DNA from: [Archangium] primigenium
GTDB taxonomy: Bacteria > Myxococcota > Myxococcia > Myxococcales > Myxococcaceae
Direction: 5' to 3'
Assembly: GCF_016904885.1 (NCBI RefSeq)
Contig: NZ_JADWYI010000001.1
Location: 7,177,224 to 7,241,223 of the forward strand
Length of the DNA stretch: 64,000 bases
The notes under the pieces: generated by a model
The model's database searches: none
What the model was told of the DNA's origin: nothing
Seen by the model: only the letters and a program-made list of their open reading frames with translations
Made by a program: the position numbers and the translations under genes
Shown here: in pieces, positions 48,962 through 64,000 of the stretch
Position numbering within the stretch: the first letter of the stretch is position 1
How the letters are laid out: each line of letters starts with the position of its first letter

Positions 48962-50323
48962 TCAGGGCTTCGCGAGCACCGCCGCTTCCAGCCGGGCCAG
49001 CGAGCGCTTGAGCTCGGACATCTCCGTCTTGAGCGCGTCCACCTCCGCGCTCTTGGCCTTCAGCTCCTCCGTGCGGCGCGCCAGGGCCTGGATGGCCACC
49101 ATGTTCACCCCGTCGATGTCGAGCAGGCCGATGCTGCGCTCGTCGGGCCCCAGGCCGAACGCCGCGCGGAAGTCCTGGGCCACCGGCCCCACGTGCCGCA
49201 CCCCCCGCTGCTCCGACTTGTACTGCCAGCTGCGCACGGGCAGCGCGAGCACCCGGGCCAGCACCTGCTCCCCGTCCACGCTCCGGAAGTCCTCCTTGCT
49301 GTCCCGGTCGGACGTGCAGGAGAAGACGCCCGAGCCCGCGGGCAGATCACACCCGGTGCTCAGCGTGGCGCTGGTGCGCAACCGCACTCCACCCGCCGCG
49401 CGCACCATGAACTGGTTGGCCGCGGTGTTCGTCACCGTGCTGGTGGTCGACTGATCTCCCCAGATGAACGCGCCCGAGTGGCCGCCCGAGTCCGCCCGAT
49501 GTCCCAGCGCGAACGAGTAGTTCGCGTTCGCCGAGACGCGATACCCCAAGGCCACCGAGCCCTGTCCACTGGCCACATTGGTGTACCCCAGCGCCACCGA
49601 CGTGAAGCCGCTCGCCACGTTCGAGGCGCCCACGCTCAACGACGCCGTGCCGGAGGCCTTGCTGACCGAGCCCAGGCAGACCGCCACCGTCCCCTCCGCC
49701 TCGCACTGGTCCCCGTAGGCGAACGAGCCCAAAGCGCTGGCCTTCGTCAGGTTGCCACCCGCCCAGGACAAAAAGCCGATGTTGGCCTCGTCCCACTGCG
49801 TCTCGGTGTAGCCCGCGCGGAAGCTCGCCTTGGAGGGGTACCACATGAGCCGGTAGCCCTTGCCCGTCACGGGCAGCGTGCCGTTGCCCAGCTCGCCGGC
49901 CGCCACCAGTCCGCCCGCCGAGTCCACCGAGAACAGCGGAAAGCCCGCCCAGGCGGGCTTGTCCGTGGTGTTGCGCACGCTCAGCAGCGGCACCGGCTCC
50001 TGGGCACTCGCCGTCGCGTCGAGCACCACGTCCGTGTTCGCCGTCAACCGGCCCTGCACCTGCCCCGTCCCCCGCACCGCGAACGATGCGTCCTGAGGCG
50101 TCGTCCCCTTCTGGAGCGCCTGGGCCAACCGGGCATCGTTGCCCTCCACGGACGTGCCCGGACCGTCCCCGTAGACGACCCGCACCGCCTCGCCATCGAG
50201 CGAGAGCCCGGTGCCCACCTGCACGCCGCTCGGGGGCGGGGTGGCGGGGTCACACCCGCACAGACCCACGATCGCGACACCACTCCAGGCCACCACGGCT
50301 CCTCGAATCGACATGCCCTTCAC
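48962..50323 (-). CDS. Tail-fibre-like lipoprotein with YadA-head-like repeats and C-terminal peptidase S74 (endosialidase intramolecular chaperone) domain
   Basis: Lipobox VGLCGCD. Repeats SVALGYTNVASGQGSVALGY...SFALGH. C-terminal CTSDRDSKEDFRSVDGEQVLARVLALPVRSWQYK...GLLDIDGVNMVAIQAL + coiled coil matches the S74 chaperone domain. Confidence 0.75.
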   Translation of the reverse strand: MKGMSIRGAVVAWSGVAIVGLCGCDPATPPPSGVQVGTGLSLDGEAVRVVYGDGPGTSVEGNDARLAQALQKGTTPQDASFAVRGTGQVQGRLTANTDVVLDATASAQEPVPLLSVRNTTDKPAWAGFPLFSVDSAGGLVAAGELGNGTLPVTGKGYRLMWYPSKASFRAGYTETQWDEANIGFLSWAGGNLTKASALGSFAYGDQCEAEGTVAVCLGSVSKASGTASLSVGASNVASGFTSVALGYTNVASGQGSVALGYRVSANANYSFALGHRADSGGHSGAFIWGDQSTTSTVTNTAANQFMVRAAGGVRLRTSATLSTGCDLPAGSGVFSCTSDRDSKEDFRSVDGEQVLARVLALPVRSWQYKSEQRGVRHVGPVAQDFRAAFGLGPDERSIGLLDIDGVNMVAIQALARRTEELKAKSAEVDALKTEMSELKRSLARLEAAVLAKP

Positions 50324-50377
50324 TCCCTGTCAAAAGAGAGGGCCACCCTGGCAAAGGACTCGCGAGGAGTAAATCCG

Positions 50378-51293: not shown

Positions 51294-54200
51294 TCAGAAA
51301 CGCACGCACGCCTTGGCGTTGATGGAGGCCTCGGACTTCGCGCCGAGATCGATGGGTTCGATCGAGACCTGGCCATCGAAGAAGGACACGAAGGCGGGCC
51401 CAAACCCCACGCCCCCCTCTCCCTTGAAGGAGGGACCACACGGCCCCAGCGAGACCTCGGCGCTCACCTTCATCTTCGACCCCAGCGCCGCGTTGGTGAT
51501 CTCCGCCTTGACCGAGACCCCAGGATCGGCCAAGCCCCCGAACGGCTTGAACTCGAAACCCAAGCCCGCCCCGAAGCCCACCTGGCCGCAGGCGGAGAAC
51601 CCCTGGCCGGGAACCCAGGCCAGCTCGAACCCCCCACCCACTCCGTCGTACCCGGAGAACCCGATGGAGATGAAACCCGTCGGATCGACGCGGTTGACCG
51701 GGTCGCCCATCGCGTATTGATACAGGTTGAGCTGCCCCCCCGCGAAGCGCAGGGGATCTCGCGCCGTCCAGCGGCCCGCCTCCGCGTCGTAATCGCGGAC
51801 CCCGAAACGGGTGAGCCCACTGTGGCTGTCATAGAGGCCGCCCGCGAAGCCGAAGGGCTGGAAGCCTGGATTGGAATCGGACAGCACCTCGCCAAAAGGG
51901 CCATACTCCAGGGACTGCTCGACAACACCCGTGGAGGCATTGACGACCAGACGGATGCTGCCCAGCTGGTCGGTGAGGAGGCGGTAGGTGACACCATCCT
52001 TGAGCATGTAGTCGGGGACATGGCGCTGGCTGGCGTAGACGAAGCGGGAGACGACGGCGCCCGCGCCATCCAGCTCGGCCACCACACGCACGGGCCCGTC
52101 ATAGAGAAAGCCCTGGACCAAGGTGCCGCCGAGACGCTTGCCCACCCTGCGACTGGAGGCGTCCAGCACATAGTCCACTTGGGTGCCGTCGGGCAGCTGC
52201 ACGTGGGTGAGCGCCCCCAGGGCATCGTAGACGTACTGGGTGGGGGCGGCCTCGGACGAGCGCGAGCGCTGTTGCAAGTCGCCGTTGAGGCCAAAGGCGT
52301 AGGTGGCGGCCCCCTGCGTCTGGAGTCGCTCCTGGGCGTCATAGGTGGCGGTGAGGGTAGCGCCCCCCTGGGTGAGCGAGGTGCGGTTGCCATTGAGGTC
52401 GTAGCCGTAGGCGGAATAGGGCGCTCCGTCCAACGTCACGGCGTGGAGACGCCCGGCCAGGTCATAGGCGTACCCCCACACGCGGGTCACGCCTGACGTG
52501 GCTTCCGTCTTGGAGGTGATCCGCCCGGCGACGTCCCGGTCCAGGATGAGGCTGTAGAGGGGGGTGCTTCCCCAGACAGCGGACAGCGCTCGCACCTCGC
52601 CATGGGCATTGTACTGCTGCTCGGTCCTCACCTGGTCCAGGGTGGTCGTGGACAGCAACCCGGTGTCTTGCCCGCGCCCCAGGGAGAGCGCGCCCGCGGA
52701 GATGAGCAGGCCATCCAAATCATACGCATAGGCGAAGGACTGCCCCTGCACCTCGAGCGCCTGGAGGGAGAAGTCGGGGGTATAGGTGTAGCTCACGCCG
52801 CCCTGGACCTCGCCACTCCACGCCACGCTCTTCACCAAGGGCCCGTCATAGGCATACGCCAGGCTAGGACCCGCGCTGTCCGTGAGGGCCGCGAGATGGC
52901 CCTGGGCGTCATACACAAAATCCACCGTGGTCCGGGGCGTGGTGAGCGCGTCCACCCGGCCCGCGCCGTCCCTGGCCAGTTGCACGGAAGCACCGTCTGG
53001 CAGGGAGATGGACGTGAGGGCCCCGTCCCCGTTGTAGGCATACCGCGTGGGAGACAGGGGCGCGGAGGAGAGCGGAGGCGGGGTGTCGCTGTCCACGGTG
53101 TCGGCCGGGGTGTAGCGGAAGTCATGGGCGGAGCGCCCGGGGGGAACCATCCGGGTGAGATTGCCGTGGGCATCGGACGCGAGCCCCACGGTGCGGCCTC
53201 CTGGGAGCCGCTCGGCGGTGAGGCGACCCGCCCCGTTGTAGCTGAAGTCCGTGGTGCGCCCGAGGACGTCCTCCACCGTCGCCAGGTAGCCCGCGGCGTC
53301 GTAAGTATAGGTTTCCGTGCGCTCGCCTTGCGTCACCTTCCAGGGACGTCCCTCGGCGTCATAGCTGTACTCCAGGGGCAGCACGCCCACGACCTCCTGC
53401 CGGACCAGTCTTCCCCGCGCATCCAAGACGGAGGTGGCTAGGCGCCCACTGGGGCTCCGGGTCCTGAGGGTGCGGCTCGCGACCGCGTACGTGGCCGTCT
53501 GCGTGCGTCCATTCTGGCTGCGCGTGTCCACCACGGTCTCGAGCCCCTTCGTGACATCCCCCTGGACGTAGGTGGCCACATTGCCGTGGGTGGAGCTGGA
53601 GGTGAGGCCCCCCGGCAGCGTCACCTGAACGGAGGAGCGCAGGGGCACCTGCATCCCGAAGCGTGCGTCCGGGCCCAGCACTTCCGTGGTGCGGGTGCCA
53701 TCCGGCGCCAGGGTGGTCGTGGTGCTTCCGTCCGCCGTCCGCAGGCTCGATGTGACCGTGCCATCCGGCGCCGTGGTGGTGCGCTGCTGCCCTCCTCCCG
53801 CCAGTTCCCGCACCTGGTAGCGGGTGGTGGTCCCCAAGGCGGTGGAGACGGCGACCGAGTAGCCATCCTCGGCATCCGTTCGCGACAGGTGCTTGTAGCC
53901 CCCCGTGGGCTGGGTGTCCCGCGCCAGCCTTCCCCGAGCGTCATAGGTGTACTGGTGCAAGCCGCCTCGGGCATCCCGCATCGAGGTGAGCAGCCCATGG
54001 GTGGAGTGCTCGAGTTCCACGCGCTCTCCCGCCGGGTTCGTCAGGGAGGAGAGGTAGCCCTGGACATCCCATGTCAGGCGGGTGCGCTGGCCATGAGGGG
54101 CGATGATCGCCAGGGGCTTGCCCGAGGTGTCCCGCTCGATCCGGGTGACCAGTCCGTCTCCATCCGTCACCGAGGTGAGCCGACCGTCCGTGCTGTAGTC

Positions 54201-57200
54201 GAACTGGTAGTGGAGCGCCCCCGTCAGTGCATTCACGGTGCGAAGGTGCCGGCCCCCAGACCCGAAGACGTACACCTCACCGCCGGCCTCGGAGAGGATG
54301 GAGATGCCGCCGACAGAAGAGGCGCTCAATGGCGCGGGGCGCACGGCGCGAACACGGTGGTTGTTCCTATCCGCGATGTACAGAGTGCCGTCTGGCCCGA
54401 CGGCGATGCGGGATGTGCCATTGAAACGAGCCAGGGTGGCTGGCCCTCCATCACCGCCAAAACCGCCCGTGCCCGGTGTCCCCGAGCCCGCCACGGTGGT
54501 GATGAGGCCTTCCGGGTCCACGCGCCGAATGCGTTGGTTGAAGTCATCCGCGATATACAGACTGCCGTCCGGGCCCACGGCGACATCCTGCGGGTACAGG
54601 AAACGAGCCAGGGTGGCCGGCCCCCCATCGCCGTCAAAACCGCCCGTACCCGGTGTCCCCGAGCCCGCCACGGTGGTCACGGTGCCCTCCGGGCCCACAC
54701 GCCGAATGCGTTGGTTGCCCGTATCCGCGATGTACACGCTCCCGTCCGGGCCCACGGCGACCCCCCTTGGGTAATTGAAACGCGCCAGGGCGGCCGGTCC
54801 GCCATCGCCGCCAAAGCCCGACGTCCCCGTGCCCGCCACGGTGGAAATACGGCCCTTCGGGTCCACGCGCCGGATGCGCTGGTTGAAGACATCCGCGATG
54901 TACAGACTGCCGTCGGGTGCCACGGCGACACTCTCCGGAGAGCTGAAGTAGGCCTGGGTGGCCGGCCCCCCATCGCCGCCAAAGGTGCCATGACCCGGTA
55001 TCCCCGAGCCCGCCACGGTGATCATGGTGCCATTCGGGCGCACGCGCCGGATGCGTTGATTTTTCCTATCCGCGATATACAGGCTGCCGTCCGGGCCCAC
55101 GGCGACAGCGGATGGGCTGTCGAGGTACATCGAGTTGCCAAGCTCCCCCTCGTTGCCGTTCAGTCCCGGCAAGCCGACAATACCCGCCACGGTTTTGATG
55201 CTGCCGTCTGGACTCACCCGCCGGACGCGGTGGGAATAGAGTTCCACGAGATAGAAGGCCCCATCTGGCCCGACGGCGACCCCCACGGGTTGGCCCACAT
55301 GGGTCTGCGTTGCTGACAATGAGTCGAGTGAATAGGCGAGGACGCCCGTACCCGCCACGGTGAAGATGTTGCCCGCGGTGAGCGACCCTGAGCTTGTCTC
55401 CCCATGGCCGAAAAGGATCCGGCCGCCGTGGGGATCCCACTGGTGGTGCACGGACAGTCGCCAGCCCCCCAGGTCTTCAGGCGACTCGCTCCATCCACCC
55501 ACCCGAGAGCGCCACGACTGCCAGGAGGTCATCTCCCTCCGCTCTCGGTTGGAAGTGACGGGCTCCGAACCCAGTTGCGCGAAGGAATCGGGGAACTCGG
55601 CGGGCTTCAAATAGACGAGCGGGTAGCGATAACCCGTCCTGCCCGTAACGACCGCCTCACCTTGCACCTTTCGGCCGTAGGCATCCTTCCCATCCCATGT
55701 GAACGAGAGCGTCTGGTGAGGCGCGGCGGGCAGCTCGTAAGTGAAGGCTCTGCCCGCGACATTCACCTCGACGACGATTCCCTCGAGCGAGGGCGGCACC
55801 GAGGCACCACTGACAGGAATGCGCAGGGTGTTCTTGTCTTGCCCCCGCACCCGGTCACTCCGGTAGTGCAGGCGCGAGGACGTCCCCGTGAGCGGCAGTG
55901 ACTCGCCCAATGCCTGGTTCTGACAATCAATGACGCTGCCCTTCTGGCAATCCGGCTTGTTCTCGGGACCCGCCTGGGGCGGCGCGTTCGTCGGAGGCCG
56001 CGCCCCCGGGGGAGGCCCATAGGGCCAGTTGTAATCCCACGGAGTGAAGTGGCTCACGGGGACGCGCCACAGGCTCTTGCCCACCGGGTAGAGGCTGGCC
56101 AACTGCCGCTGCTCGGCCTCGGAGATGCCCAGCGTGGCCAGCACCGCGGCGCTGTCCGGCACGCCGTCTCCCGTGACATCCAGTTGCGCCACACCCTCGA
56201 GGACGCCGTGCACCTGGAGGATGCGGCCGTTGGTCGAGGGCAGCCAGACCCCTCGCCGCCGATCGTAATAGCCCGAGGGCACGGTGCCGCCCACGGGGAA
56301 GCCCAGGAAGTTGTCCACGTAGGAGGCCACGGGCTGGGTGAAGCGCACCTCCTGGCTGTCCAGCGCCAGGGCCTCGTCCAGGGACAGCTCCACCGCGTAG
56401 GTGTACCCGCTGGTGGGAGGCAGATGCGCCGGCATGGAGGCGGGCCCCTCCTCGCCCACCGTGTACTCGGTGGCGCGCACCGTGGCCGAATAGAGGGGCA
56501 CCTCGTCCCCATTGGCCAGGACGGCCAGGGCCTGGGTGCCCGGGGCGAAGAGGAGCGTGGCCTGCCGGGTGCCATCCGCGTCCGTGACCGGGCTGCCTCG
56601 CGCCACCTGGTGGGTGGTGCTCGTGCCGCTGAAGTCCACGGGCGTGCCCTGGGGGTCCAACGGGACGAGCACCACGTCCGGCAGCCAGGCGAAATCTCCC
56701 CAAGGGACGTGGAGCTGGCGCTGAGACGGCAGCAGTCCCTCGGCCTCGTACCTCACGGTGAGGAGGCCTCCGCCATTCACGGCCAGGTCGAAGAGGCCAT
56801 CCTCCCGTGTGAGGGTGTGGCCATACTCCGGATGGTCGAGCACGGAGACGCGCACCTCCTCCAGCGGGTAGCCCTGACGTGAGCGCACCTTGCCGCGCAG
56901 CACCGCCAAGCGATGGGGCACCAGGGTGCCGGGGGCCACGCCCACCTGGATGGGGTCCTCTCCCGAGTAGAGGAAGGACACGGCGTCCACGAAGGGCGTC
57001 ACCGCGAACGGGGACAGCGCGGGCGCGCGCTCCTCGGGGGCGGGCGGAAGGTCGAAGGGCGGCACGTCCACATGCAGGGCGGCGACGGACTCCTGGACCA
57101 GCGAGCCGTAGGCATTTCCCTGGCCATCCCGCCAGGACAGCGCCACCTGGGTCCGCTGGGCCTGCCCCTCGAGCGCCCGCAGGCGCGCGGCGTACGCCGA

Positions 57201-57905
57201 GACGGTTTCACCCCGCTGCCTCACGGGAAGTGGAGGCGGCGTCCAGGTCACCGCCTTGTTCCAGGTGGCGCCCGGCGCCATCGCGTCCAAGGCCACCTCC
57301 ACCCGCGTGGCGTCGGACAACACCACCTGGAGACTTCCCGAGGCGGTCCCCGCCAACCCCCCGTTGGTGACCGTCACGGTATAGGTGATCGCCTCTCCCG
57401 GCAGTGCCACCACGGGGCCTTCCAGGCGCAGGGAGAGACGCGGCAGTACCACGCGACCGTCCGAGGACAACGAGAGGGGCTTGGCCTGAACTCCCGGGGT
57501 CTCGGCGAAATGAACCTCCCCTCGCGATACGAGCGGCTGCCGCTCCAGGTCCTCCAGACGTTGGTGGTAGGAGGCGAGCGACTCGGATTCCCCCCGCGGC
57601 GCCGCGACCGGCGCCGCCAGGTGGAAGGTCACGGTGCGCTCTTCCCCCACCGCCAGGGCACCCACCCGCTCCTCGGCGGAAGGCGGCTGCGTTCCCTGGA
57701 AAGCCTCCCCCACTCGCACGTCGTCCACCGGTACGGAGGACGTGTTGGTCAGTCGTACCAGGACATCGAACCCCTGCCCCGGCAGCACCTCCAAGGGTTG
57801 TGTCTGTGTGGCCACGAGCGAGGCCGGTACCGGGGCGGCGCTGTCACATGCCCCCATCCCCAGCAGCATCCACAGCGCCACCACACGAATGGTCAACGAA
57901 GACAT
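51294..57905 (-). CDS. Teneurin-like RHS/YD-repeat protein: signal peptide, DUF11/CARDB-like repeats, 5 NHL repeats, YD-repeat shell, RHS core, 125-aa Gly-rich C-terminal domain of unknown function
   Basis: Met at 57905 (MSSLTIRVVALWMLLGMGAC). NHL units (LYIADRKNQRIRRV, LYIADVFNQRIRRV, VYIADTGNQRIRRV, LYIADDFNQRIRRV, LYIADRNNHRVRAV). Many YD motifs (YTYDARGRL, YSYDAEGRP, YAYDLAGRL...). RHS core terminus RDPLRFAGGQLNLYQYAMGDPVNRVDPTGF. Then a novel C-terminal domain. Confidence 0.85.
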   Translation of the reverse strand: MSSLTIRVVALWMLLGMGACDSAAPVPASLVATQTQPLEVLPGQGFDVLVRLTNTSSVPVDDVRVGEAFQGTQPPSAEERVGALAVGEERTVTFHLAAPVAAPRGESESLASYHQRLEDLERQPLVSRGEVHFAETPGVQAKPLSLSSDGRVVLPRLSLRLEGPVVALPGEAITYTVTVTNGGLAGTASGSLQVVLSDATRVEVALDAMAPGATWNKAVTWTPPPLPVRQRGETVSAYAARLRALEGQAQRTQVALSWRDGQGNAYGSLVQESVAALHVDVPPFDLPPAPEERAPALSPFAVTPFVDAVSFLYSGEDPIQVGVAPGTLVPHRLAVLRGKVRSRQGYPLEEVRVSVLDHPEYGHTLTREDGLFDLAVNGGGLLTVRYEAEGLLPSQRQLHVPWGDFAWLPDVVLVPLDPQGTPVDFSGTSTTHQVARGSPVTDADGTRQATLLFAPGTQALAVLANGDEVPLYSATVRATEYTVGEEGPASMPAHLPPTSGYTYAVELSLDEALALDSQEVRFTQPVASYVDNFLGFPVGGTVPSGYYDRRRGVWLPSTNGRILQVHGVLEGVAQLDVTGDGVPDSAAVLATLGISEAEQRQLASLYPVGKSLWRVPVSHFTPWDYNWPYGPPPGARPPTNAPPQAGPENKPDCQKGSVIDCQNQALGESLPLTGTSSRLHYRSDRVRGQDKNTLRIPVSGASVPPSLEGIVVEVNVAGRAFTYELPAAPHQTLSFTWDGKDAYGRKVQGEAVVTGRTGYRYPLVYLKPAEFPDSFAQLGSEPVTSNRERREMTSWQSWRSRVGGWSESPEDLGGWRLSVHHQWDPHGGRILFGHGETSSGSLTAGNIFTVAGTGVLAYSLDSLSATQTHVGQPVGVAVGPDGAFYLVELYSHRVRRVSPDGSIKTVAGIVGLPGLNGNEGELGNSMYLDSPSAVAVGPDGSLYIADRKNQRIRRVRPNGTMITVAGSGIPGHGTFGGDGGPATQAYFSSPESVAVAPDGSLYIADVFNQRIRRVDPKGRISTVAGTGTSGFGGDGGPAALARFNYPRGVAVGPDGSVYIADTGNQRIRRVGPEGTVTTVAGSGTPGTGGFDGDGGPATLARFLYPQDVAVGPDGSLYIADDFNQRIRRVDPEGLITTVAGSGTPGTGGFGGDGGPATLARFNGTSRIAVGPDGTLYIADRNNHRVRAVRPAPLSASSVGGISILSEAGGEVYVFGSGGRHLRTVNALTGALHYQFDYSTDGRLTSVTDGDGLVTRIERDTSGKPLAIIAPHGQRTRLTWDVQGYLSSLTNPAGERVELEHSTHGLLTSMRDARGGLHQYTYDARGRLARDTQPTGGYKHLSRTDAEDGYSVAVSTALGTTTRYQVRELAGGGQQRTTTAPDGTVTSSLRTADGSTTTTLAPDGTRTTEVLGPDARFGMQVPLRSSVQVTLPGGLTSSSTHGNVATYVQGDVTKGLETVVDTRSQNGRTQTATYAVASRTLRTRSPSGRLATSVLDARGRLVRQEVVGVLPLEYSYDAEGRPWKVTQGERTETYTYDAAGYLATVEDVLGRTTDFSYNGAGRLTAERLPGGRTVGLASDAHGNLTRMVPPGRSAHDFRYTPADTVDSDTPPPLSSAPLSPTRYAYNGDGALTSISLPDGASVQLARDGAGRVDALTTPRTTVDFVYDAQGHLAALTDSAGPSLAYAYDGPLVKSVAWSGEVQGGVSYTYTPDFSLQALEVQGQSFAYAYDLDGLLISAGALSLGRGQDTGLLSTTTLDQVRTEQQYNAHGEVRALSAVWGSTPLYSLILDRDVAGRITSKTEATSGVTRVWGYAYDLAGRLHAVTLDGAPYSAYGYDLNGNRTSLTQGGATLTATYDAQERLQTQGAATYAFGLNGDLQQRSRSSEAAPTQYVYDALGALTHVQLPDGTQVDYVLDASSRRVGKRLGGTLVQGFLYDGPVRVVAELDGAGAVVSRFVYASQRHVPDYMLKDGVTYRLLTDQLGSIRLVVNASTGVVEQSLEYGPFGEVLSDSNPGFQPFGFAGGLYDSHSGLTRFGVRDYDAEAGRWTARDPLRFAGGQLNLYQYAMGDPVNRVDPTGFISIGFSGYDGVGGGFELAWVPGQGFSACGQVGFGAGLGFEFKPFGGLADPGVSVKAEITNAALGSKMKVSAEVSLGPCGPSFKGEGGVGFGPAFVSFFDGQVSIEPIDLGAKSEASINAKACVRF

Positions 57906-57992
57906 GTGCGCCCCCCAGGCGCACGAGCCTACCGTCGACGGTGACCCCACCGACGGCCTCGTTCGACAGACGTTGGGCCGGAAACAAGGGAA

Positions 57993-59219
57993 TCAGGTGC
58001 CCGGCGCGCGGTACTGGAGCTGCAACGGTGAGCCCCGCGTGTTGTAGGGGTGGTCGGCGCCCACGGCGGACATCCACCCGCACGCGCCCCGGTTCCACAG
58101 GTCCACCACCTGGTTGTTCGCGCTGTAGGTCGCCTCACCGGAGGCGGCGTAACCCGCCGCGGCGAACTGGTTGGGCGCCATGACGAAGGCCGTGCCCCTC
58201 AGGTCGACGTTGCCCAGGCCCGTGTTGCCGAAGTCGCAGTTCATGGCCGAGCCGTAGGTCATGGAGGTGACGGGGTCGCCGTGCGAGAGCACTCCCGTGG
58301 ACGTGGCGAAGGTCTGGTCCGCGGTGTTCACCCGCAGTGTCGCGGGATCGATGCGGACCTTGGTGTAGACGGTCCGCACGTTCGTGTCCCCCGGGCGGTC
58401 GGACCGTGCGGTGTACTGGGAGAAGTTGCTCGACGCGCCCGTGGAGGGCAGCGGCAGGTAGTCCGTGGGGCCACCGGACATGTTGTGGCAGTAGGCCGTC
58501 CAGGGCTGGGCGGCATTGCCCTTCACGTACAGCGTATACGTCCCGTCCTGCGCGGGAGGATGCGTGAGCTTGTACTCCAGGCAGCTCGCCGGAGTCACAT
58601 CCAGCCACGACCCCTGGGTCACGTCCACGAAGTGCATGAGCCTCAAGCTGCCACTGGGGCTGGTCAGCCAGTACGGCTTGCCCGCCGGATCGAACAGGTC
58701 CTTGAACGCGCCGTTGCCCTGCAGGACGAAGAACTGTCCCGGCCCCGGGACGCTCATGTCCTGGGAGAGGACGACCTGGACACTGATGTTGGGATACTCG
58801 TTGTCGTTGTTGTACCCCCGCGCGAACCACGACCACCTGCGGCCGTCATAGTCATAATCCCGCTGCTCCCCATGCTCGCCCCAGGCCGCCACCCGCGTCG
58901 GGAAGACCGTGGGATTCACACCGTAATGACTGACATCCCCGATAAGGCAGCTGTACTTGCCATTGGACGGAAACGAGCCGTAGCGGCAATTGCGGCCTCC
59001 CTGGCTCGTGGTCGTATAGATGGAGGTGACCGCGAGCTTGCCGTCCTGCATGAAGAGCTCGGACTTCGAGCGGAACCCCGCGTTGTCGAACGTCAGGATG
59101 ACCGCCAGCTTCCCATTGGGCCAGTACCACGCCATCCGGGCATCCGCTCGCGCGGAGGCACTGAGCAGACACGTCAGGGAGACTGCCGCGAGGGATGCGA
59201 GCGATGCCAAGCGCTTCAT
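57993..59219 (-). CDS. Secreted protein with Cys-containing C-terminal domain weakly reminiscent of GON/fibrinogen-like domains
   Basis: Signal peptide MKRLASLASLAAVSLTCLLSASARA. 408 aa. Conserved Cys/Trp/Tyr pattern (TYTLYVKGNAAQPWTAYCHNM...MNCDFGNTGLGNVDL...WNRGACGWM). Co-oriented 42 nt upstream of the RHS gene. Confidence 0.6.
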   Translation of the reverse strand: MKRLASLASLAAVSLTCLLSASARADARMAWYWPNGKLAVILTFDNAGFRSKSELFMQDGKLAVTSIYTTTSQGGRNCRYGSFPSNGKYSCLIGDVSHYGVNPTVFPTRVAAWGEHGEQRDYDYDGRRWSWFARGYNNDNEYPNISVQVVLSQDMSVPGPGQFFVLQGNGAFKDLFDPAGKPYWLTSPSGSLRLMHFVDVTQGSWLDVTPASCLEYKLTHPPAQDGTYTLYVKGNAAQPWTAYCHNMSGGPTDYLPLPSTGASSNFSQYTARSDRPGDTNVRTVYTKVRIDPATLRVNTADQTFATSTGVLSHGDPVTSMTYGSAMNCDFGNTGLGNVDLRGTAFVMAPNQFAAAGYAASGEATYSANNQVVDLWNRGACGWMSAVGADHPYNTRGSPLQLQYRAPGT

Positions 59220-59362
59220 GGGACGACCCTTTCCTGTTCGGGGGAGACGACGTCGCGGCGGTACCTTCCCACCCCGGGCGTGTGCCCGGAGGAGAAAATT
59301 CCGTCACCTCCAGAATAGTCAGGAAAGCGCGCAGCGGACAATGGCGTGCGCGGCGCCGGCGG

Positions 59363-60511
59363 TCACAGCAGGCCGGTGCCGTACGCGTAGCTCCGGGTGG
59401 GCCCCTCGCCCTCGGTGGACAGACGCCGCACGCTCAGGTTCATCGAGGGCACGTGCGAGCCGGGCGACGAGGAGAACGTCACCTGGAGCGTGTCCCCCCG
59501 CTTCACGGGAAGCGCGTCGATGGGAAACCACGTCTGGTGCCAGTGCGTGTGGATGGAGAACGGGGACGTGTCGAGCACCTCCCCGGGCGCCAGTTCCAGC
59601 TCGAAGTGGCCCGCCAGACCGTGCACCACCGCGTCCCGGTCCATGCGGAACTCCACGCTCGACTCGAAGTAGAAGGACCCCACCGACTCCTTCGTGCAGT
59701 CGATGTGCCGCAGGAGCACGGGCTCCGTCAGGTAGCTCTCGCGCCGGACCCGGTCGATCCGCATCTTCAGGTTGCCCAGCTCCTGCGCCTTCACCTGGCT
59801 GTAGTCAAAGCCCCCGATGGGCTGCTCCCAGAAGCCCGGACCCTCGTACTGGTAGAGCGCCGAGTCCTCGATGGGCGCCAGGAAGAGCCTGCCCGCCGAG
59901 GGAATGGTCCGGCCGCCGGGCTTGAGCACCCGGTCGCGCACCGCCGAGAACGCCGGGTACATGTTCTCCACGATGAGGAAGTGGCCAATCCACTCCGAGA
60001 CGATGACGTCCGCCTGGATGTCCGCGGAGAAGTCCGCCGCGTCCCCGTGGAACAGCTCGATCCGGTCCGCCAGGCCATTGGCCTCGATGAGCGAGCGCGC
60101 CGTGTGGACGATCGCGGAGCGCTCGATGGCGAAGACGCGCTCGGCGCCACTGGCCGCGGCCGCCATGGCGAGCAGCCCCGTGCCCGTGCCGACGTCCACC
60201 ACCGTGTCCCCGGGCTGGACCACCTTGCGGATGGCGCGCAGGAACGCGTCGTTGCGCGCCCGGTCGCGCAGCATGTTGCGCTGGCTGCCCAGGGTCGCGA
60301 AGTCCAGGAACAGCACCGAGGCCTGTTCGGACACCTCCTGCGAGGCCGACAGAATCCCCGACTCGCGGATGGCCGCGAAGCGCTCGCGCAGCACGGCCTC
60401 GGGCAGTCCGGAGCTCTGGGCCACCGAGCGGATCAACTCCTCGGGCTCCATGGGTGAGGCGAGCGCCAAGAGCAGGGGGATGACGTCTTCCCGGAGCTGG
60501 TAGAAGGGCAC
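59363..60511 (-). CDS. Protein arginine N-methyltransferase (PRMT)-family class I SAM-dependent methyltransferase
   Basis: Motif I VVDVGTGTGLL; post-I FAIERS; double-E loop SEWIGHFLIVENM; THW loop THWHQTWF; N-terminal MLRDRARNDAFLRAI like the PRMT pre-motif. 382 aa. Confidence 0.8.
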   Translation of the reverse strand: MPFYQLREDVIPLLLALASPMEPEELIRSVAQSSGLPEAVLRERFAAIRESGILSASQEVSEQASVLFLDFATLGSQRNMLRDRARNDAFLRAIRKVVQPGDTVVDVGTGTGLLAMAAAASGAERVFAIERSAIVHTARSLIEANGLADRIELFHGDAADFSADIQADVIVSEWIGHFLIVENMYPAFSAVRDRVLKPGGRTIPSAGRLFLAPIEDSALYQYEGPGFWEQPIGGFDYSQVKAQELGNLKMRIDRVRRESYLTEPVLLRHIDCTKESVGSFYFESSVEFRMDRDAVVHGLAGHFELELAPGEVLDTSPFSIHTHWHQTWFPIDALPVKRGDTLQVTFSSSPGSHVPSMNLSVRRLSTEGEGPTRSYAYGTGLL

Positions 60512-60578
60512 GGAGGGGTCTCCTGGTGGGGGTTGCGACGAACCCTACCAGCCGCCCCCGCCACGTCGCGAGACCCCG

Positions 60579-62390
60579 TCAGGGACGAGCGACGAGCTCC
60601 CGGTGCTGGTTGAAGAACCGCTCGAACAGCACGGTCAGTCGCTTGCGGATTTCTTCTCGGGGATGCTGCTCCCATTGGGCGAGGCAGCTCAGCAGCTCGC
60701 GCACCCACCCGGGGTTTTGCATGCGGGCGAACCGGGCCTCGAAGTAGAGCGCGAGGACCAGGGACTCGTTCTTCTCCTGCCCGTCCAGACGGACACCCGG
60801 TTGGGGATAGTCCTCGTGAGGGTCCAGTCCCGTCGGCAGTCCGGCGATCTCGATGACCACGCGCTTGAGCGCCCCCGGCTCGGCGTCGCGCAGCGGGAGC
60901 GTGCCGAGCCGACACGCATGGAAGAGCCAGATGAGGTAGCGCCGCAGCCGGCGCTCGGACAGCATCCGCATGGGACGCTCGGGCTCGAAGACCCGAAAAC
61001 TCTCCAGCACGTTCCAGGCGATGTCTTCCATGTCCTGGGTCCGCGTCCGGCCCCGCGCCCTTCCCGGCCGATGGTCTGTTCGCCAGGCGAGCGCCGCCTC
61101 GACGGCGAGCGCATCCGCGTCGAAGTCCAGCGCCTCGAGCACGAACCCTGTCCGGCCGCTGCCCTGGTAGTCATAGGAGGTGGCGCCCTGCTGGGCGACA
61201 TGGAACGCCTCGTGGACGAGCAACAACCGGACGCACTCCTCCCAGTCCTCGGGCGAGCGCAAGCGCTCCTGCAACTGCCGGTATCCCAGCAACAGGTTGA
61301 CGTGGAACGTCCAGCTGCCGTTGAGGTGCCGGAAGAGCGGGGCATTCTGGCGCGCGGGAACCGTGTCGATGTCGCTCTGGAGCAGGGACGTCTGCTCCAG
61401 CTTCTGGCGCAGGGACTTCTGTTTGGGACGCTTGAGCCAATCACACAGCTGCGCGTGGATGGTACGCACCCGCTTGAGCAGCTCTCCGGCCTCGGCGAAC
61501 TGCTCGGACGAGGGCGAGCCCGGTGTCGACGCGACCCGCCGCGGCGGATGGATGCGGCGGACGGCGAGGTACTTGCGCTGCTCGGGGTTGAAGTGGTGGA
61601 GCACCACGGGATGCTGCGTGTTCGTGTTGATGACCGAGCCCAGCGCGGCGGCCAGGCTGGCGGGTCCATCCATGGCGAGCAGCACGGACTCCACGCCCTC
61701 CAGGTGCTTGTGCAGGGTGTCCATCACGGAGCGGAACTGCTCGGCGGCCTCGGACGCATCCTGGAGGCTCTGGACGGCCTGGGGGCTCGGGCCTCCCCGC
61801 GCGGGCCGCAGGACCACGGTGGCGAGCAGCTCCGAGGGATGGCGGGCCTGGAACTCGGCGAGCGCCACATCCCGGATGGACTGGGTCACCTCGACGATGA
61901 GGGCCACCTTGCCCCGGCCTCCCTGACGTGACGTGGGCAGCCCCTCCAGCGCGAAGAACGGCGTCTGCGCGGAGGACAGCGAGCGGTCATAGCCCAGCAG
62001 CCAGGTGCCATCCGTGATCCGCTGTTGATACACGTACAGCGGCCGGCGCGGCAGGCAGGACGCCAGGTGCAGCATCAGCATCAGGGGGGCGCACCCGAAG
62101 AGGTGGATGTCCAGATCCACCCCCAGCTCCCGCTCCTTCCTCGACAAGGCCTCGGCGAAGCGCTCGTTCTCGTCGAAGGCCGCGGACCAGTCCTGCTCGG
62201 GCCGCGTCCGGATGCGCGTGTGGGGCTCGAACGGATGCAGCACGACCGCCACGACATCCCGGTCACCTTCCACGCCTCGCTGCTTCAGGGCGTCGCGCGC
62301 GGCGTCCTCCGTGATGGGCCTGTCGTGCTCGTAGCGCAGGATGAGGGCTCGGGTCCTCACGTTGATGGGAATGTCGATGTCCATGGGCAT
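60579..62390 (-). CDS. Hypothetical protein: N-terminal tandem Rossmann-like (SAVED/CARF-like) repeats fused to C-terminal DUF4157-type HExxH (zincin-like) domain
   Basis: Start at the Met at 62390 (MPMDIDIPI...); the track start at 62522 would overlap the kinase gene. Two repeats centred on IHLFGCAPLMLMLHLASCL...PLYVYQQ and VLLAMDGPASLAAALGSVIN...PVVLHHF. The C-terminal LLLVHEAFHVAQQG matches the DUF4157 HExxHxxQQ signature. Confidence 0.7.
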   Translation of the reverse strand: MPMDIDIPINVRTRALILRYEHDRPITEDAARDALKQRGVEGDRDVVAVVLHPFEPHTRIRTRPEQDWSAAFDENERFAEALSRKERELGVDLDIHLFGCAPLMLMLHLASCLPRRPLYVYQQRITDGTWLLGYDRSLSSAQTPFFALEGLPTSRQGGRGKVALIVEVTQSIRDVALAEFQARHPSELLATVVLRPARGGPSPQAVQSLQDASEAAEQFRSVMDTLHKHLEGVESVLLAMDGPASLAAALGSVINTNTQHPVVLHHFNPEQRKYLAVRRIHPPRRVASTPGSPSSEQFAEAGELLKRVRTIHAQLCDWLKRPKQKSLRQKLEQTSLLQSDIDTVPARQNAPLFRHLNGSWTFHVNLLLGYRQLQERLRSPEDWEECVRLLLVHEAFHVAQQGATSYDYQGSGRTGFVLEALDFDADALAVEAALAWRTDHRPGRARGRTRTQDMEDIAWNVLESFRVFEPERPMRMLSERRLRRYLIWLFHACRLGTLPLRDAEPGALKRVVIEIAGLPTGLDPHEDYPQPGVRLDGQEKNESLVLALYFEARFARMQNPGWVRELLSCLAQWEQHPREEIRKRLTVLFERFFNQHRELVARP

Positions 62391-62463
62391 CCGGTGGTGT
62401 TTTCCGCCTCCACACGGGAAGACGGAATCGCCGGGCGAATCCATCGCGGGCCGTGCGCTTTTT

Positions 62464-63309
62464 TCAGGTTCCGGGGGTGAGCAGCCCGAGCACTTCCGCC
62501 AGGGCGGGCCGGTCCTCGGCATCCTTCGCCAGCATCCGCGCCATCATCGTCCGTACGGCGTCGGACGCACGACCCTCGAGCAGCGCCAGGGGCGGTTCGC
62601 CTCGGACGTGAAGGATCATCAATCCCTGCTGACCGCTCGACTGGAAAGGCAGTTGGCCCGTCAGCAGCTGAAACCACAGGACGCCCAGGGAGTAGACGTC
62701 CGCCGACGGTCCCACCGTCTTCGCATCGAACCACTGCTCCGGGGGCCGGTAGTCCGCGGTGCCGAGCATCGTGCCACCCGCCGTGGAGATGGGCAGCCCC
62801 TCGGGTCCCGCCGAAGGGAGCCGCTTGGCGAGTCCAAGGTCCGCGAGCCGCACGCTCCAATCACCCGGCACCCGGCGAGCCACGAGCACGTTCTCGGGCT
62901 TCAAGTCCCGATGGATGATCCCCTTCGCATGGAGCAGGGAGAGCACCTCGGCCAGCTGCCCGACGACCTGGACACTCTCCAGGCAAGACAGCCGGCCTCC
63001 CACGCGGGCGAGCGCGCGGGCGAGGTCCTCCGGATGCCACTCCAACACCATGTAGGGTGGGCCCTCGGGGAGCTCCCCCGAGGAGAGACCCTTCACCAGA
63101 TGCGGATGCGCGAGCCCCTGGAGCATCCGGGCCTCGTTGAGGAAGCGCGCCATGACCTCGGGGTCGATGCACCACGTCGGGTGCAGGACCTTGATGGCCA
63201 CGGAGGCGCCATCGGACGCCCTGCGTCCTTCGTAGACGGTGCCGGTCAGCCCCTCCGCGACGAAGCGCAGCAGGCGGTACTCCCCGACCTGTGTTCCCTT
63301 CGACAGCAT
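62464..63309 (-). CDS. Hanks-type Ser/Thr protein kinase (kinase domain only, 281 aa)
   Basis: Met at 63309 (MLSKGTQVGEYRLLRFVAEGLTGTVYEG). VAIK Lys; catalytic loop IIHRDLKPENVLV; ADLGLAK; activation segment ...GTADYRPPE. Confidence 0.85.
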   Translation of the reverse strand: MLSKGTQVGEYRLLRFVAEGLTGTVYEGRRASDGASVAIKVLHPTWCIDPEVMARFLNEARMLQGLAHPHLVKGLSSGELPEGPPYMVLEWHPEDLARALARVGGRLSCLESVQVVGQLAEVLSLLHAKGIIHRDLKPENVLVARRVPGDWSVRLADLGLAKRLPSAGPEGLPISTAGGTMLGTADYRPPEQWFDAKTVGPSADVYSLGVLWFQLLTGQLPFQSSGQQGLMILHVRGEPPLALLEGRASDAVRTMMARMLAKDAEDRPALAEVLGLLTPGT

Positions 63310-63320
63310 TCCAAGTGCCT

Positions 63321-64000
63321 CTACTTCGAGCCGGTGGGCTTGAGCATGTACAGCGCCTGGATGCAAGACAGCAGGCTCCGCAATTCCTCGGCGCACTGGG
63401 GATGGTCCGCCACGAAAGCCTCCACGTCCACCTGCTCACCCTGCTGCTGTTTGCGCATGTAGAGGAGCAGGGCCGCATCCGCGGCGTTCTGGATGATGGC
63501 GTCCTGGCTGATTCCCGGCGACTGCTTCTCGGGGTTGCCAGACCTGCGATCCCGGATGGCGCGCACAGCTCGCTGGCGGAGGGAGCTCACCGCATCCTGA
63601 CTCTTGCCCATGTGTTGCGCGATCTCCGCATCGGACAGATCGTCCAGATAATAGAGAAAGACGACCTTCCGTTGCTCCTTGGGCAGGCCGTAGACATACC
63701 CCAGCAGTTGTCGACACTCCTCCTGCTGGGATGCGAACTGACTCGGGCTTCGCTGGACGGCGGCCAGTTGATGGGAATCGAGTTCCTCCAGGGACTCCGT
63801 GGCATCCTCGCTTCGCTTCTGGCTGTGGGCCTCGCGCGAGATATCCATGAGGCGTCTCCGCTGAATCTTCTTGAGCCAGGCGAACCACGACTCCTCGGTC
63901 TCTCCGTCGAAGGAGGGGAAGCGCTGGAAGGCACGCAGCGCTGTTTCCTGAACGAGATCCGATTTGCGGGTACCAGCCGGAGGGGACCGTCCCATCTGGT
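63321..64000 (-). CDS. ECF-type sigma factor with C-terminal extension (partial; N-terminus beyond window end)
   Basis: Region 2 DLVQETALRAFQRFPSFDG...WFAWLKKIQRRR and region 4 LSDAEIAQHMGKSQDAVSSLRQRA, followed by a ~75-aa extension. The conserved region 1.2/2.1 lead-in is missing, so the true start lies past 64000. Confidence 0.75.
   Translation of the reverse strand, partial: QMGRSPPAGTRKSDLVQETALRAFQRFPSFDGETEESWFAWLKKIQRRRLMDISREAHSQKRSEDATESLEELDSHQLAAVQRSPSQFASQQEECRQLLGYVYGLPKEQRKVVFLYYLDDLSDAEIAQHMGKSQDAVSSLRQRAVRAIRDRRSGNPEKQSPGISQDAIIQNAADAALLLYMRKQQQGEQVDVEAFVADHPQCAEELRSLLSCIQALYMLKPTGSK

Follow-up and report, generated by a model that had tools for sequence, protein, structure and literature searches.

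What does a nucleotide sensor fused to a putative metallopeptidase do where no gene for its signal lies beside it? The question was raised by a gene on the minus strand (60579..62390) of a 64,000-nucleotide stretch of Archangium primigenium DNA (contig NZ_JADWYI010000001.1; hereafter the window, with positions counted from its first nucleotide). The product combines an N-terminal SAVED sensor domain with a C-terminal zincin-like domain carrying an HExxH motif. This SAVED-zincin, or SAVED-peptidase, is probably a cyclic-oligonucleotide-activated metallopeptidase effector that has been orphaned here from its signal synthases. We infer its peptidase activity, its ligand and its mode of activation.

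The open reading frame (ORF) was intact, comprising 603 codons and a stop without interruption. Its G+C content at third codon positions (GC3 = 0.88) was of the coding type in a host genome of 70% GC. In Archangium primigenium a 601-aa protein recorded as "SAVED domain-containing protein" matched the 603-aa product at 100% identity. About 60 homologues at 49-74% identity were found in the Archangiaceae and Myxococcaceae, and one more at 36%.

The N-terminal half is a genuine SAVED domain made up of two CARF-like Rossmannoid lobes. It matched Pfam SAVED PF18145 over residues 80-274 (E=4.7e-19; 69.3 bits, curated cut-off 26.2) and NCBIfam SAVED NF033611 over residues 16-276 (E=2.8e-29; 102.4 bits, curated cut-off 33). 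In an AlphaFold2 model of the protein built on 30 orthologues (mean pLDDT 84), the order beta-alpha-beta-long alpha-beta-alpha-beta-beta occurred twice, at residues 13-135 and 160-280. All of the top Foldseek matches to the PDB were SAVED proteins (Cap5, 3TM-SAVED, SAVED-CHAT, Cap4 and CalpL; E 3e-12 to 2e-9, probability 1.00), among them Cap5 7rwm (E=2.9e-12), Cap4 7yib (E~1e-9) and CalpL 9eyj (E~1e-9). When the family profile was compared with PDB sequences it matched SAVED chains only, and the best solved relative was the type III-B SAVED-CHAT protein 8tl0 (1.3e-7).

An initial annotation, made from the letters of the window, had called this half SAVED/CARF-like, which the Pfam, NCBIfam and Foldseek matches bear out. 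The strings that it had picked out were found at residues 95 (IHLFGCAPLMLMLHLASCL), 118 (LYVYQ), 236 (VLLAMDGPASLAAALGSVIN), 262 (VVLHHF) and 389 (LLLVHEAFHVAQQG). Its description of tandem similar units held for the fold, in which both "cores" occupied equivalent positions in the two lobes, but not for the sequence, since no similarity between the lobes was detectable (hhalign probability 0.18%).

The C-terminal half carried the proposed HExxH domain. Across 30 orthologues H393, E394, H397, Q400, E419, D422, D424, D426 and the segment ERRLRR (479-484) were invariant, so that the HExxH motif was conserved in 30 of 30. The fusion of an HExxH zincin-like domain to a SAVED sensor was confirmed. 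Residues 291-603, used in an exhaustive HMMER search of 1.84 billion representatives, brought up only 183 relatives. HExxH was kept in 142 of the 148 representatives inspected, in the context LHExxHxxQ..GR..LE..DYxAD. In an alignment of 86 diverse relatives sharing <=50% identity, HExxH, D422, D426 and part of ERRLRR were invariant and E419 was at least 90% conserved. E419 lies 22 residues past H397, and D422 and D426 were more conserved than E419 across relatives.

A separate AlphaFold2 model of the C-terminal half was confident (pLDDT 87, pTM 0.88). Foldseek of this model against the PDB gave no meaningful match (best E=0.97), and phmmer of the domain against PDB sequences gave zero matches. 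None of the Pfam peptidase families was significant for the domain, and there was no Lon match within it. Peptidase_M48 was not matched at E<=10 in 30 orthologues, and of the 39 families at E<=1 in the 86 relatives, the 25 listed did not include it. Because HExxH was conserved while the Pfam peptidase families and Foldseek came back empty, the domain is, as judged from its sequence, a divergent zincin-like putative metallopeptidase and not a member of DUF4157.

DUF4157 (PF13699, now "eCIS_core") had been the family proposed by the initial annotation. Like the domain studied here, it places HExxH in a small helical zincin-like module, and the string HEAFHVAQQG resembles what we take to be its HExxHVxQ-type signature. 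PF13699 also gave a marginal match in 1 of the 86 relatives (E=0.018). Against this, PF13699 had no match at E<=10 in the protein or in the 29 orthologues that were scanned along with its C-terminal fragment. DUF6782 ("putative metallopeptidase"), which matched 5 of the 86 relatives (best E=1.5e-4), was a weak yet closer Pfam neighbor. The conserved neighborhood was one of cyclic-oligonucleotide-based antiphage signaling (CBASS) and type III-B CRISPR, unrelated to extracellular contractile injection systems (eCIS) and containing no eCIS, type VI secretion or polymorphic-toxin genes. Membership in DUF4157/eCIS was rejected on the missing PF13699 match and the unrelated context, and a toxin of DUF4157 type, or an eCIS cargo metallopeptidase, with a SAVED-like regulatory domain is highly improbable.

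The initial annotation had also presented the fusion as a new sensor-effector combination. It proved to be catalogued already: PADLOC-DB v2 (2023) entry PDLC02018, "SAVED_peptidaseM48", aligned residues 66-601 with profile positions 1-494 of 498 (E=1.9e-160), and the PADLOC CBASS "Effector: Peptidase" model PDLC00754 matched residues 331-567 (E=2.8e-25). This computational catalogue therefore covers both the full-length architecture and the C-terminal domain. The "M48" in the PADLOC label is without independent support. The gene of the window is, by these profile matches, a further member of a catalogued, experimentally uncharacterised effector family. The name "SAVED_peptidaseM48" presumably comes from the CARF/SAVED classification of Makarova et al. 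2020. SAVED fusions with nucleases, TIR, Lon protease and CHAT protease have all been characterised.

The most frequent architecture, in 79 of 146 representatives, was a protein of 540-660 aa with no other catalytic domain. The C-terminal HExxH domain was also found behind SAVED in the CHAT-SAVED-X proteins P0197, P0201, P0204 and P0229 (~780-825 aa) and in the JAB-SAVED-X protein P0189 (755 aa). In these CHAT- and JAB-SAVED-X proteins two putative peptidase domains flanked one sensor.

Rather than a protein-degrading effector, the HExxH domain could be a hydrolase with an accessory or regulatory part, for example in signal turnover, in self-processing or as an oligomerisation scaffold. The domain was rarely seen anywhere but C-terminal to SAVED, and the proteins concerned include CHAT-SAVED-X and JAB-SAVED-X ones with an effector-type protease of their own; PMC11417357 describes the SAVED domain of CalpL as able to show ring-nuclease activity. 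However, the classical mark of a peptidase is HExxH together with an invariant Glu, in the 79 short representatives the domain must be the output, and the PADLOC curators file the family as a peptidase effector. We judge an accessory role to be improbable.

The gene neighborhoods of relatives (loci numbered with L below) were examined in called-gene tables and by tblastn mapping of 28 genome loci. A conserved myxobacterial cassette emerged in the order: a Ser/Thr kinase (STK)-STAND-TPR protein, a sigma factor of the extracytoplasmic function (ECF) type, a small Ser/Thr kinase, one or two SMODS genes, the SAVED-peptidase and, usually, a type III-B cmr operon. The first gene encoded an STK-nSTAND1-TPR protein of ~1130 aa that matched PADLOC PDLC01088, "C3a189 kinase" (E=6e-156); C3a189 corresponds to cluster 189 in the type III accessory set of Shah et al. 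2018 (PMC6546367). The small Ser/Thr kinase was ~285 aa long. The SMODS genes encoded CD-NTases (cGAS/DncV-like nucleotidyltransferases) matching the CBASS "Cyclase" model PDLC00823 (E~1e-75). The usual type III-B operon was complete (cmr1, cas10, cmr3-6 and cas6). Its Cas10 was ~590 aa long and kept the GGDD cyclase motif; a pattern search found no "HD" dipeptide.

Among the loci with enough flank, 11 had SMODS and Cmr, five had SMODS only and two had Cmr only. The operon lay directly downstream of the SAVED-peptidase, abutting or overlapping at cmr1, in 13 related loci. The cmr1 start overlapped the SAVED-peptidase stop in L001 and L031, which points to co-transcription. L031, the locus of the closest homologue (74% identity), had the full sigma-kinase-SMODS-SAVED-peptidase-RAMP order. 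In the five SMODS-only loci the next genes were a Cap4-like SAVED_PDDEXK, bpMoxR/VWA genes or nothing recognised. A Cap4-like SAVED_PDDEXK paralogue followed the SAVED-peptidase in L002 and L015.

SMODS adjacency was counted in 19 related loci with upstream flank, namely 16 orthologues and three distant relatives. A SMODS CD-NTase adjoined the gene on its upstream side (in L024, just downstream) in all of these except L012 (Myxococcus sp. Y35), L010/L033 (strain RHSTA-1-4) and the Sorangium locus L022. Both a Polyangia metagenome-assembled genome (MAG) and a paralogue from A. gephyra, with SAVED-peptidases at only 25-30% identity, had the order sigma, kinase, SAVED-peptidase with SMODS beside the gene. 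In Sorangium L022 the sigma, kinase and SAVED-peptidase order was kept and SMODS was undetected.

CRISPR arrays of at least 28 repeats followed cas6 in two Myxococcus loci. The array of A. violaceum was degenerate, having been cut to five mutated repeats, which suggests that the CRISPR part is decaying in Archangium. The type III-B arrays shared the 36-nt repeat GTCGCGCTCGCCGTGATGCCGGAAGGCGTTGAGCAC (L001 19221-19554, L012 19761-21753 and L014 19711-21770).

Other variants of the cassette were seen. Tandem SMODS genes occurred in L004 (6109-7949), L005 (2217-4081) and L024 (11778-13519), with a promoter-like motif before each, and in L004 a Cap4-like SAVED_PDDEXK gene sat between the cyclases and the SAVED-peptidase. 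In the Archangium MAG locus L032 (11791-15095) a bpMoxR AAA+ ATPase, together with a VWA protein, replaced Cmr after the SAVED-peptidase, with a stop/start overlap; bpMoxR/VWA is possibly another partner module.

Because SMODS and cmr/cas10 genes flank the gene in related loci, the likely ligands are the products of the CD-NTase and/or Cas10. The SAVED-zincin would be a cytoplasmic two-part effector in which the SAVED half senses a cyclic oligonucleotide from the neighboring CD-NTase and/or Cas10. Ligand binding would switch on the zincin-like output, which would most likely be a ligand-activated metallopeptidase. Activation may proceed via ligand-induced oligomerisation, by analogy with Cap4, Cap5, SAVED-CHAT and CalpL. 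The STAND kinase, the small kinase and the ECF sigma would govern transcription of the effector block. In A. primigenium the receptor-effector stands orphaned beside the sigma and the kinase, behind a retained promoter motif.

A more far-reaching version, in which a CD-NTase and an unrelated synthase, the III-B Cas10, converge on one SAVED-zincin in a hybrid innate/adaptive circuit, with the entire unit read from dedicated ECF promoters under a STAND/Ser-Thr-kinase sensor and the receptor-protease kept in A. primigenium after both synthases were lost, is put forward tentatively and is on the doubtful side. If it were true, the A. primigenium receptor-protease would listen in trans to other sources of cyclic nucleotides or have a ligand-independent role with the sigma and kinase.

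Of the cassette, the window keeps the sigma, the kinase and the SAVED-peptidase; the STK-STAND kinase is expected past the window edge at 64000. The kinase was 63% and the sigma 42% identical to their counterparts in the A. violaceum cassette. The statement in the initial annotation that no cyclase or CD-NTase is nearby was true across the window, where tblastn and profile hidden Markov models (HMMs) at E<=10 found neither CD-NTase/SMODS nor Cas10. The window also lacked Cmr genes and showed neither a CRISPR array nor a repeat.

The spacer between the kinase and the SAVED gene aligned with the kinase-SMODS spacers of L031, L032 and L001 (z of 10.9, 10.7 and 6.4, respectively) versus a z of only 1.7 with the SMODS-SAVED spacer of relatives. 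Because the surviving spacer is of the kinase-SMODS type and keeps the promoter-like motif, the SMODS ORF must have been cleanly excised, and the SAVED-peptidase start now occupies the former SMODS start position. Since SMODS adjoins the gene in nearly all related loci, the missing cyclase is a lineage-specific deletion and not a family trait.

Such losses might mean that the gene no longer functions and is a leftover of a decayed defence island, surviving only because the deletions happened recently. Missing from the window were SMODS, the cmr operon and the CRISPR array; the downstream genes were unrelated to the cassette, and the 120 best homologues of SMODS, like the 120 best of Cas10, included no A. 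primigenium protein. The gene itself argues the other way. Its ORF is intact, all invariant residues were kept, and the protein deviated at four of 144 near-invariant family positions, like its orthologues in intact cassettes (0-8). The promoter motif was retained, and the in-register deletion has brought the gene to a place immediately after it. Since the closest relative shares just 74% identity, there was time enough for decay, yet none has occurred. Sequence decay thus appears to be absent from the SAVED-peptidase of the window, and a relic is not what we expect, with only a small chance of being correct.

Several points weigh against an active peptidase effector in A. primigenium. With no signal synthase in the window and no A. 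primigenium orthologue among those best 120, the window protein may never be activated; the genome probably lacks the cognate synthases, though it may contain divergent ones. Because CHAT-SAVED-X and JAB-SAVED-X proteins with the same C-terminal domain already carry a protease, this domain may be neither the only effector nor the principal one. The searchable literature yielded no biochemical or experimental study of any SAVED-zincin family member.

The retained motif was part of a wider pattern. In an 18-locus alignment of the spacer upstream of the first post-kinase gene, an A-tract was followed by GCGAYGG, 16-17 nt and CGTC. Columns G24, C25, G26, A27, G29, C47, T49, C50 and T52 were invariant, and mean column identity was 45%. 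The motif was found at a fixed position upstream of SMODS and/or the SAVED-peptidase in 20 of 20 loci (for example L001 9010-9037, L031 3057-3084 and L012 9929-9956): 29-43 nt before SMODS start codons in all loci and before the SAVED-peptidase in ten. It also preceded the second SMODS or cmr1 in some loci. The weight of the motif lies in its fixed position and alignment conservation and not in pattern frequency, as the loose pattern alone occurred in the window at chance density (11 observed vs 10 expected). A sigma-70 promoter and terminator scan of 59200-64000 gave nothing informative. Both the -10-like CGTC and the spacing are characteristic of ECF-type promoters. The presence of the motif before SMODS and SAVED-peptidase genes suggests that the sigma/kinase module controls their transcription, presumably through the cassette's own sigma, and the motif may define the regulon of that sigma.

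The constant company of sigma and kinase could also be read in the opposite direction, as a CalpL-like switch in which the SAVED-peptidase specifically cleaves the sigma extension, the small kinase or the STAND kinase and so frees or activates the sigma, with gene expression and not killing as the output. An ECF sigma and a kinase lay directly upstream of the SAVED-peptidase in 16 orthologous loci and in the distant Polyangia, Sorangium and A. gephyra versions. Past region 4 the cassette sigma continues in an extension of ~75 aa, and the window retained exactly sigma, kinase and SAVED-peptidase, whose joint survival such a switch would explain. There is precedent in CalpL, a SAVED-Lon protein that frees the ECF sigma CalpS by cleaving the anti-sigma CalpT (PMC11229360). 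On the other side, no CalpT-like anti-sigma was present (no CalpT profile was used), the partner being a catalytically intact kinase, and the motif upstream of SMODS and SAVED-peptidase fits a sigma acting upstream of the effector. Moreover, L010/L033 has the SAVED-peptidase and Cmr without sigma or kinase genes, and the distant loci L025, L027 and L030 pair with SMODS and had no kinase or sigma match. A CalpL-like switch is therefore an unlikely explanation, if a better one than either an accessory domain or a relic.

The metallopeptidase effector that we favor shares parts with several known systems. SAVED-CHAT, a cA3 (cyclic triadenylate)-activated protease of type III-B CRISPR (PDB 8tl0), is likewise a SAVED sensor with a protease encoded with type III-B and gave the best profile match and a strong fold match; its protease, unlike the zincin-like domain, is caspase-like CHAT (Cys/His), and its domain order is different. 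CalpL-CalpT-CalpS is similar in having a SAVED-fused protease beside an ECF sigma in a type III context and a matching SAVED fold. It differs in its Lon-type (Ser-Lys) protease and its anti-sigma CalpT, where the cassette has a Ser/Thr kinase partner. In the window an adjacent ECF sigma was found and the protease-like domain was HExxH instead of Lon. In contrast to CalpS, the cassette sigma appears to act upstream, via the conserved promoter motif. Cap4 and Cap5 were among the top structural matches of the sensor domain and are encoded beside a CD-NTase, but differ in output: a DNA-acting nuclease takes the place of the peptidase. Of the hallmarks of CBASS, the window contained the nucleotide-sensing SAVED domain and no adjacent CD-NTase; as for a type III ancillary effector, no cas10/cmr genes or CRISPR array were adjacent in the window.

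In the DdvS-DdvA island of Myxococcus xanthus an ECF sigma drives several promoters before CBASS and Cmr genes, and the island confers phage resistance (PMC11506125). A CHAT-SAVED effector is part of the island, whose sigma is under the control of a transmembrane TPR-CHAT anti-sigma (PMC11506125). The two loci are alike in being myxobacterial, with CBASS and type III-B driven by ECF promoters. They differ in that neither Ser/Thr kinases or STAND control nor a SAVED-zincin is described for the M. xanthus island (PMC11506125). The island was rejected as the same locus on account of its different sigma and anti-sigma and its CHAT-SAVED effector.

With its conserved place between CD-NTase and Cas10 operon, the SAVED-zincin is well suited to testing whether one effector can serve both CBASS and type III CRISPR signals. 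It likewise offers a test of the part that a metalloprotease output plays in defence, and the synthase-stripped A. primigenium copy is a natural experiment on the survival of orphan receptors.

Table 1. Features of the SAVED-zincin locus, in positions of the window.
Feature	Position	Strand	Details
SAVED-zincin gene	60579..62390	-	603 aa + stop; NCBI start 2 codons later (62384); PADLOC PDLC02018, E=1.9e-160
SAVED sensor domain	61536..62363	-	residues ~10-285; Pfam, NCBIfam, AlphaFold2 model, Foldseek
SAVED lobe 1	61935-62363	-	residues 10-152
SAVED lobe 2	61536-61934	-	residues 153-285
C-terminal zincin-like (putative metallopeptidase) domain	60582..61373	-	residues ~340-603
HEAFH (H393, E394, H397), putative zinc-binding/catalytic motif	61200..61214	-	translation and conservation
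EALDFDAD (E419, D422, D424, D426), candidate third metal ligand and acidic cluster, next helix	61113..61136	-	conservation
ERRLRR, invariant basic segment	60939..60956	-	residues 479-484
Kinase-to-SAVED intergenic spacer (SMODS-deletion scar)	62391..62463	-	73 nt; homologous to kinase-SMODS spacer
ECF-type promoter-like motif GCGATGG-N16-CGTCTT	62419..62447	-	31 nt before ATG, A-tract ahead
Small Ser/Thr protein kinase of the cassette	62464..63309	-	Pfam Pkinase 2.1e-39; catalytic K, HRD and DLG present
ECF sigma of the cassette, 5' end cut by window edge	63321..64000	-	Pfam Sigma70_r4_2, Sigma70_ECF, Sigma70_r2

The region of 45-64 kb is a variable region beside the housekeeping genes smc, prfA, prmC and aroA, as indicated by the GON, S74-type and Rhs genes found there. 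The downstream PRMT-like (protein arginine methyltransferase-like), GON and Rhs genes were rejected as parts of the system because they had no counterparts in any related locus. The PRMT-like gene (59363-60511, minus strand) lies directly downstream of the SAVED gene and encodes a homologue of eukaryotic-type protein arginine methyltransferases, with a PRMT_C match (E=1.7e-16) and a class I methyltransferase core that also matches PADLOC "mad2". It is followed by a gene for a secreted GON-domain protein (57993-59219, minus strand). The next gene (51294-57950, minus strand) encodes a teneurin-like Rhs protein of 2218 aa with TTR, NHL and YD-shell/RHS repeats and a variable C-terminal tip; its NHL region contains a 177-nt tandem DNA repeat in 3.9 copies (54422-55107). 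Farther downstream, a gene at 48962-50329 (minus strand) encodes YadA-head repeats and Peptidase_S74 (endosialidase chaperone) and resembles a phage tail fibre.

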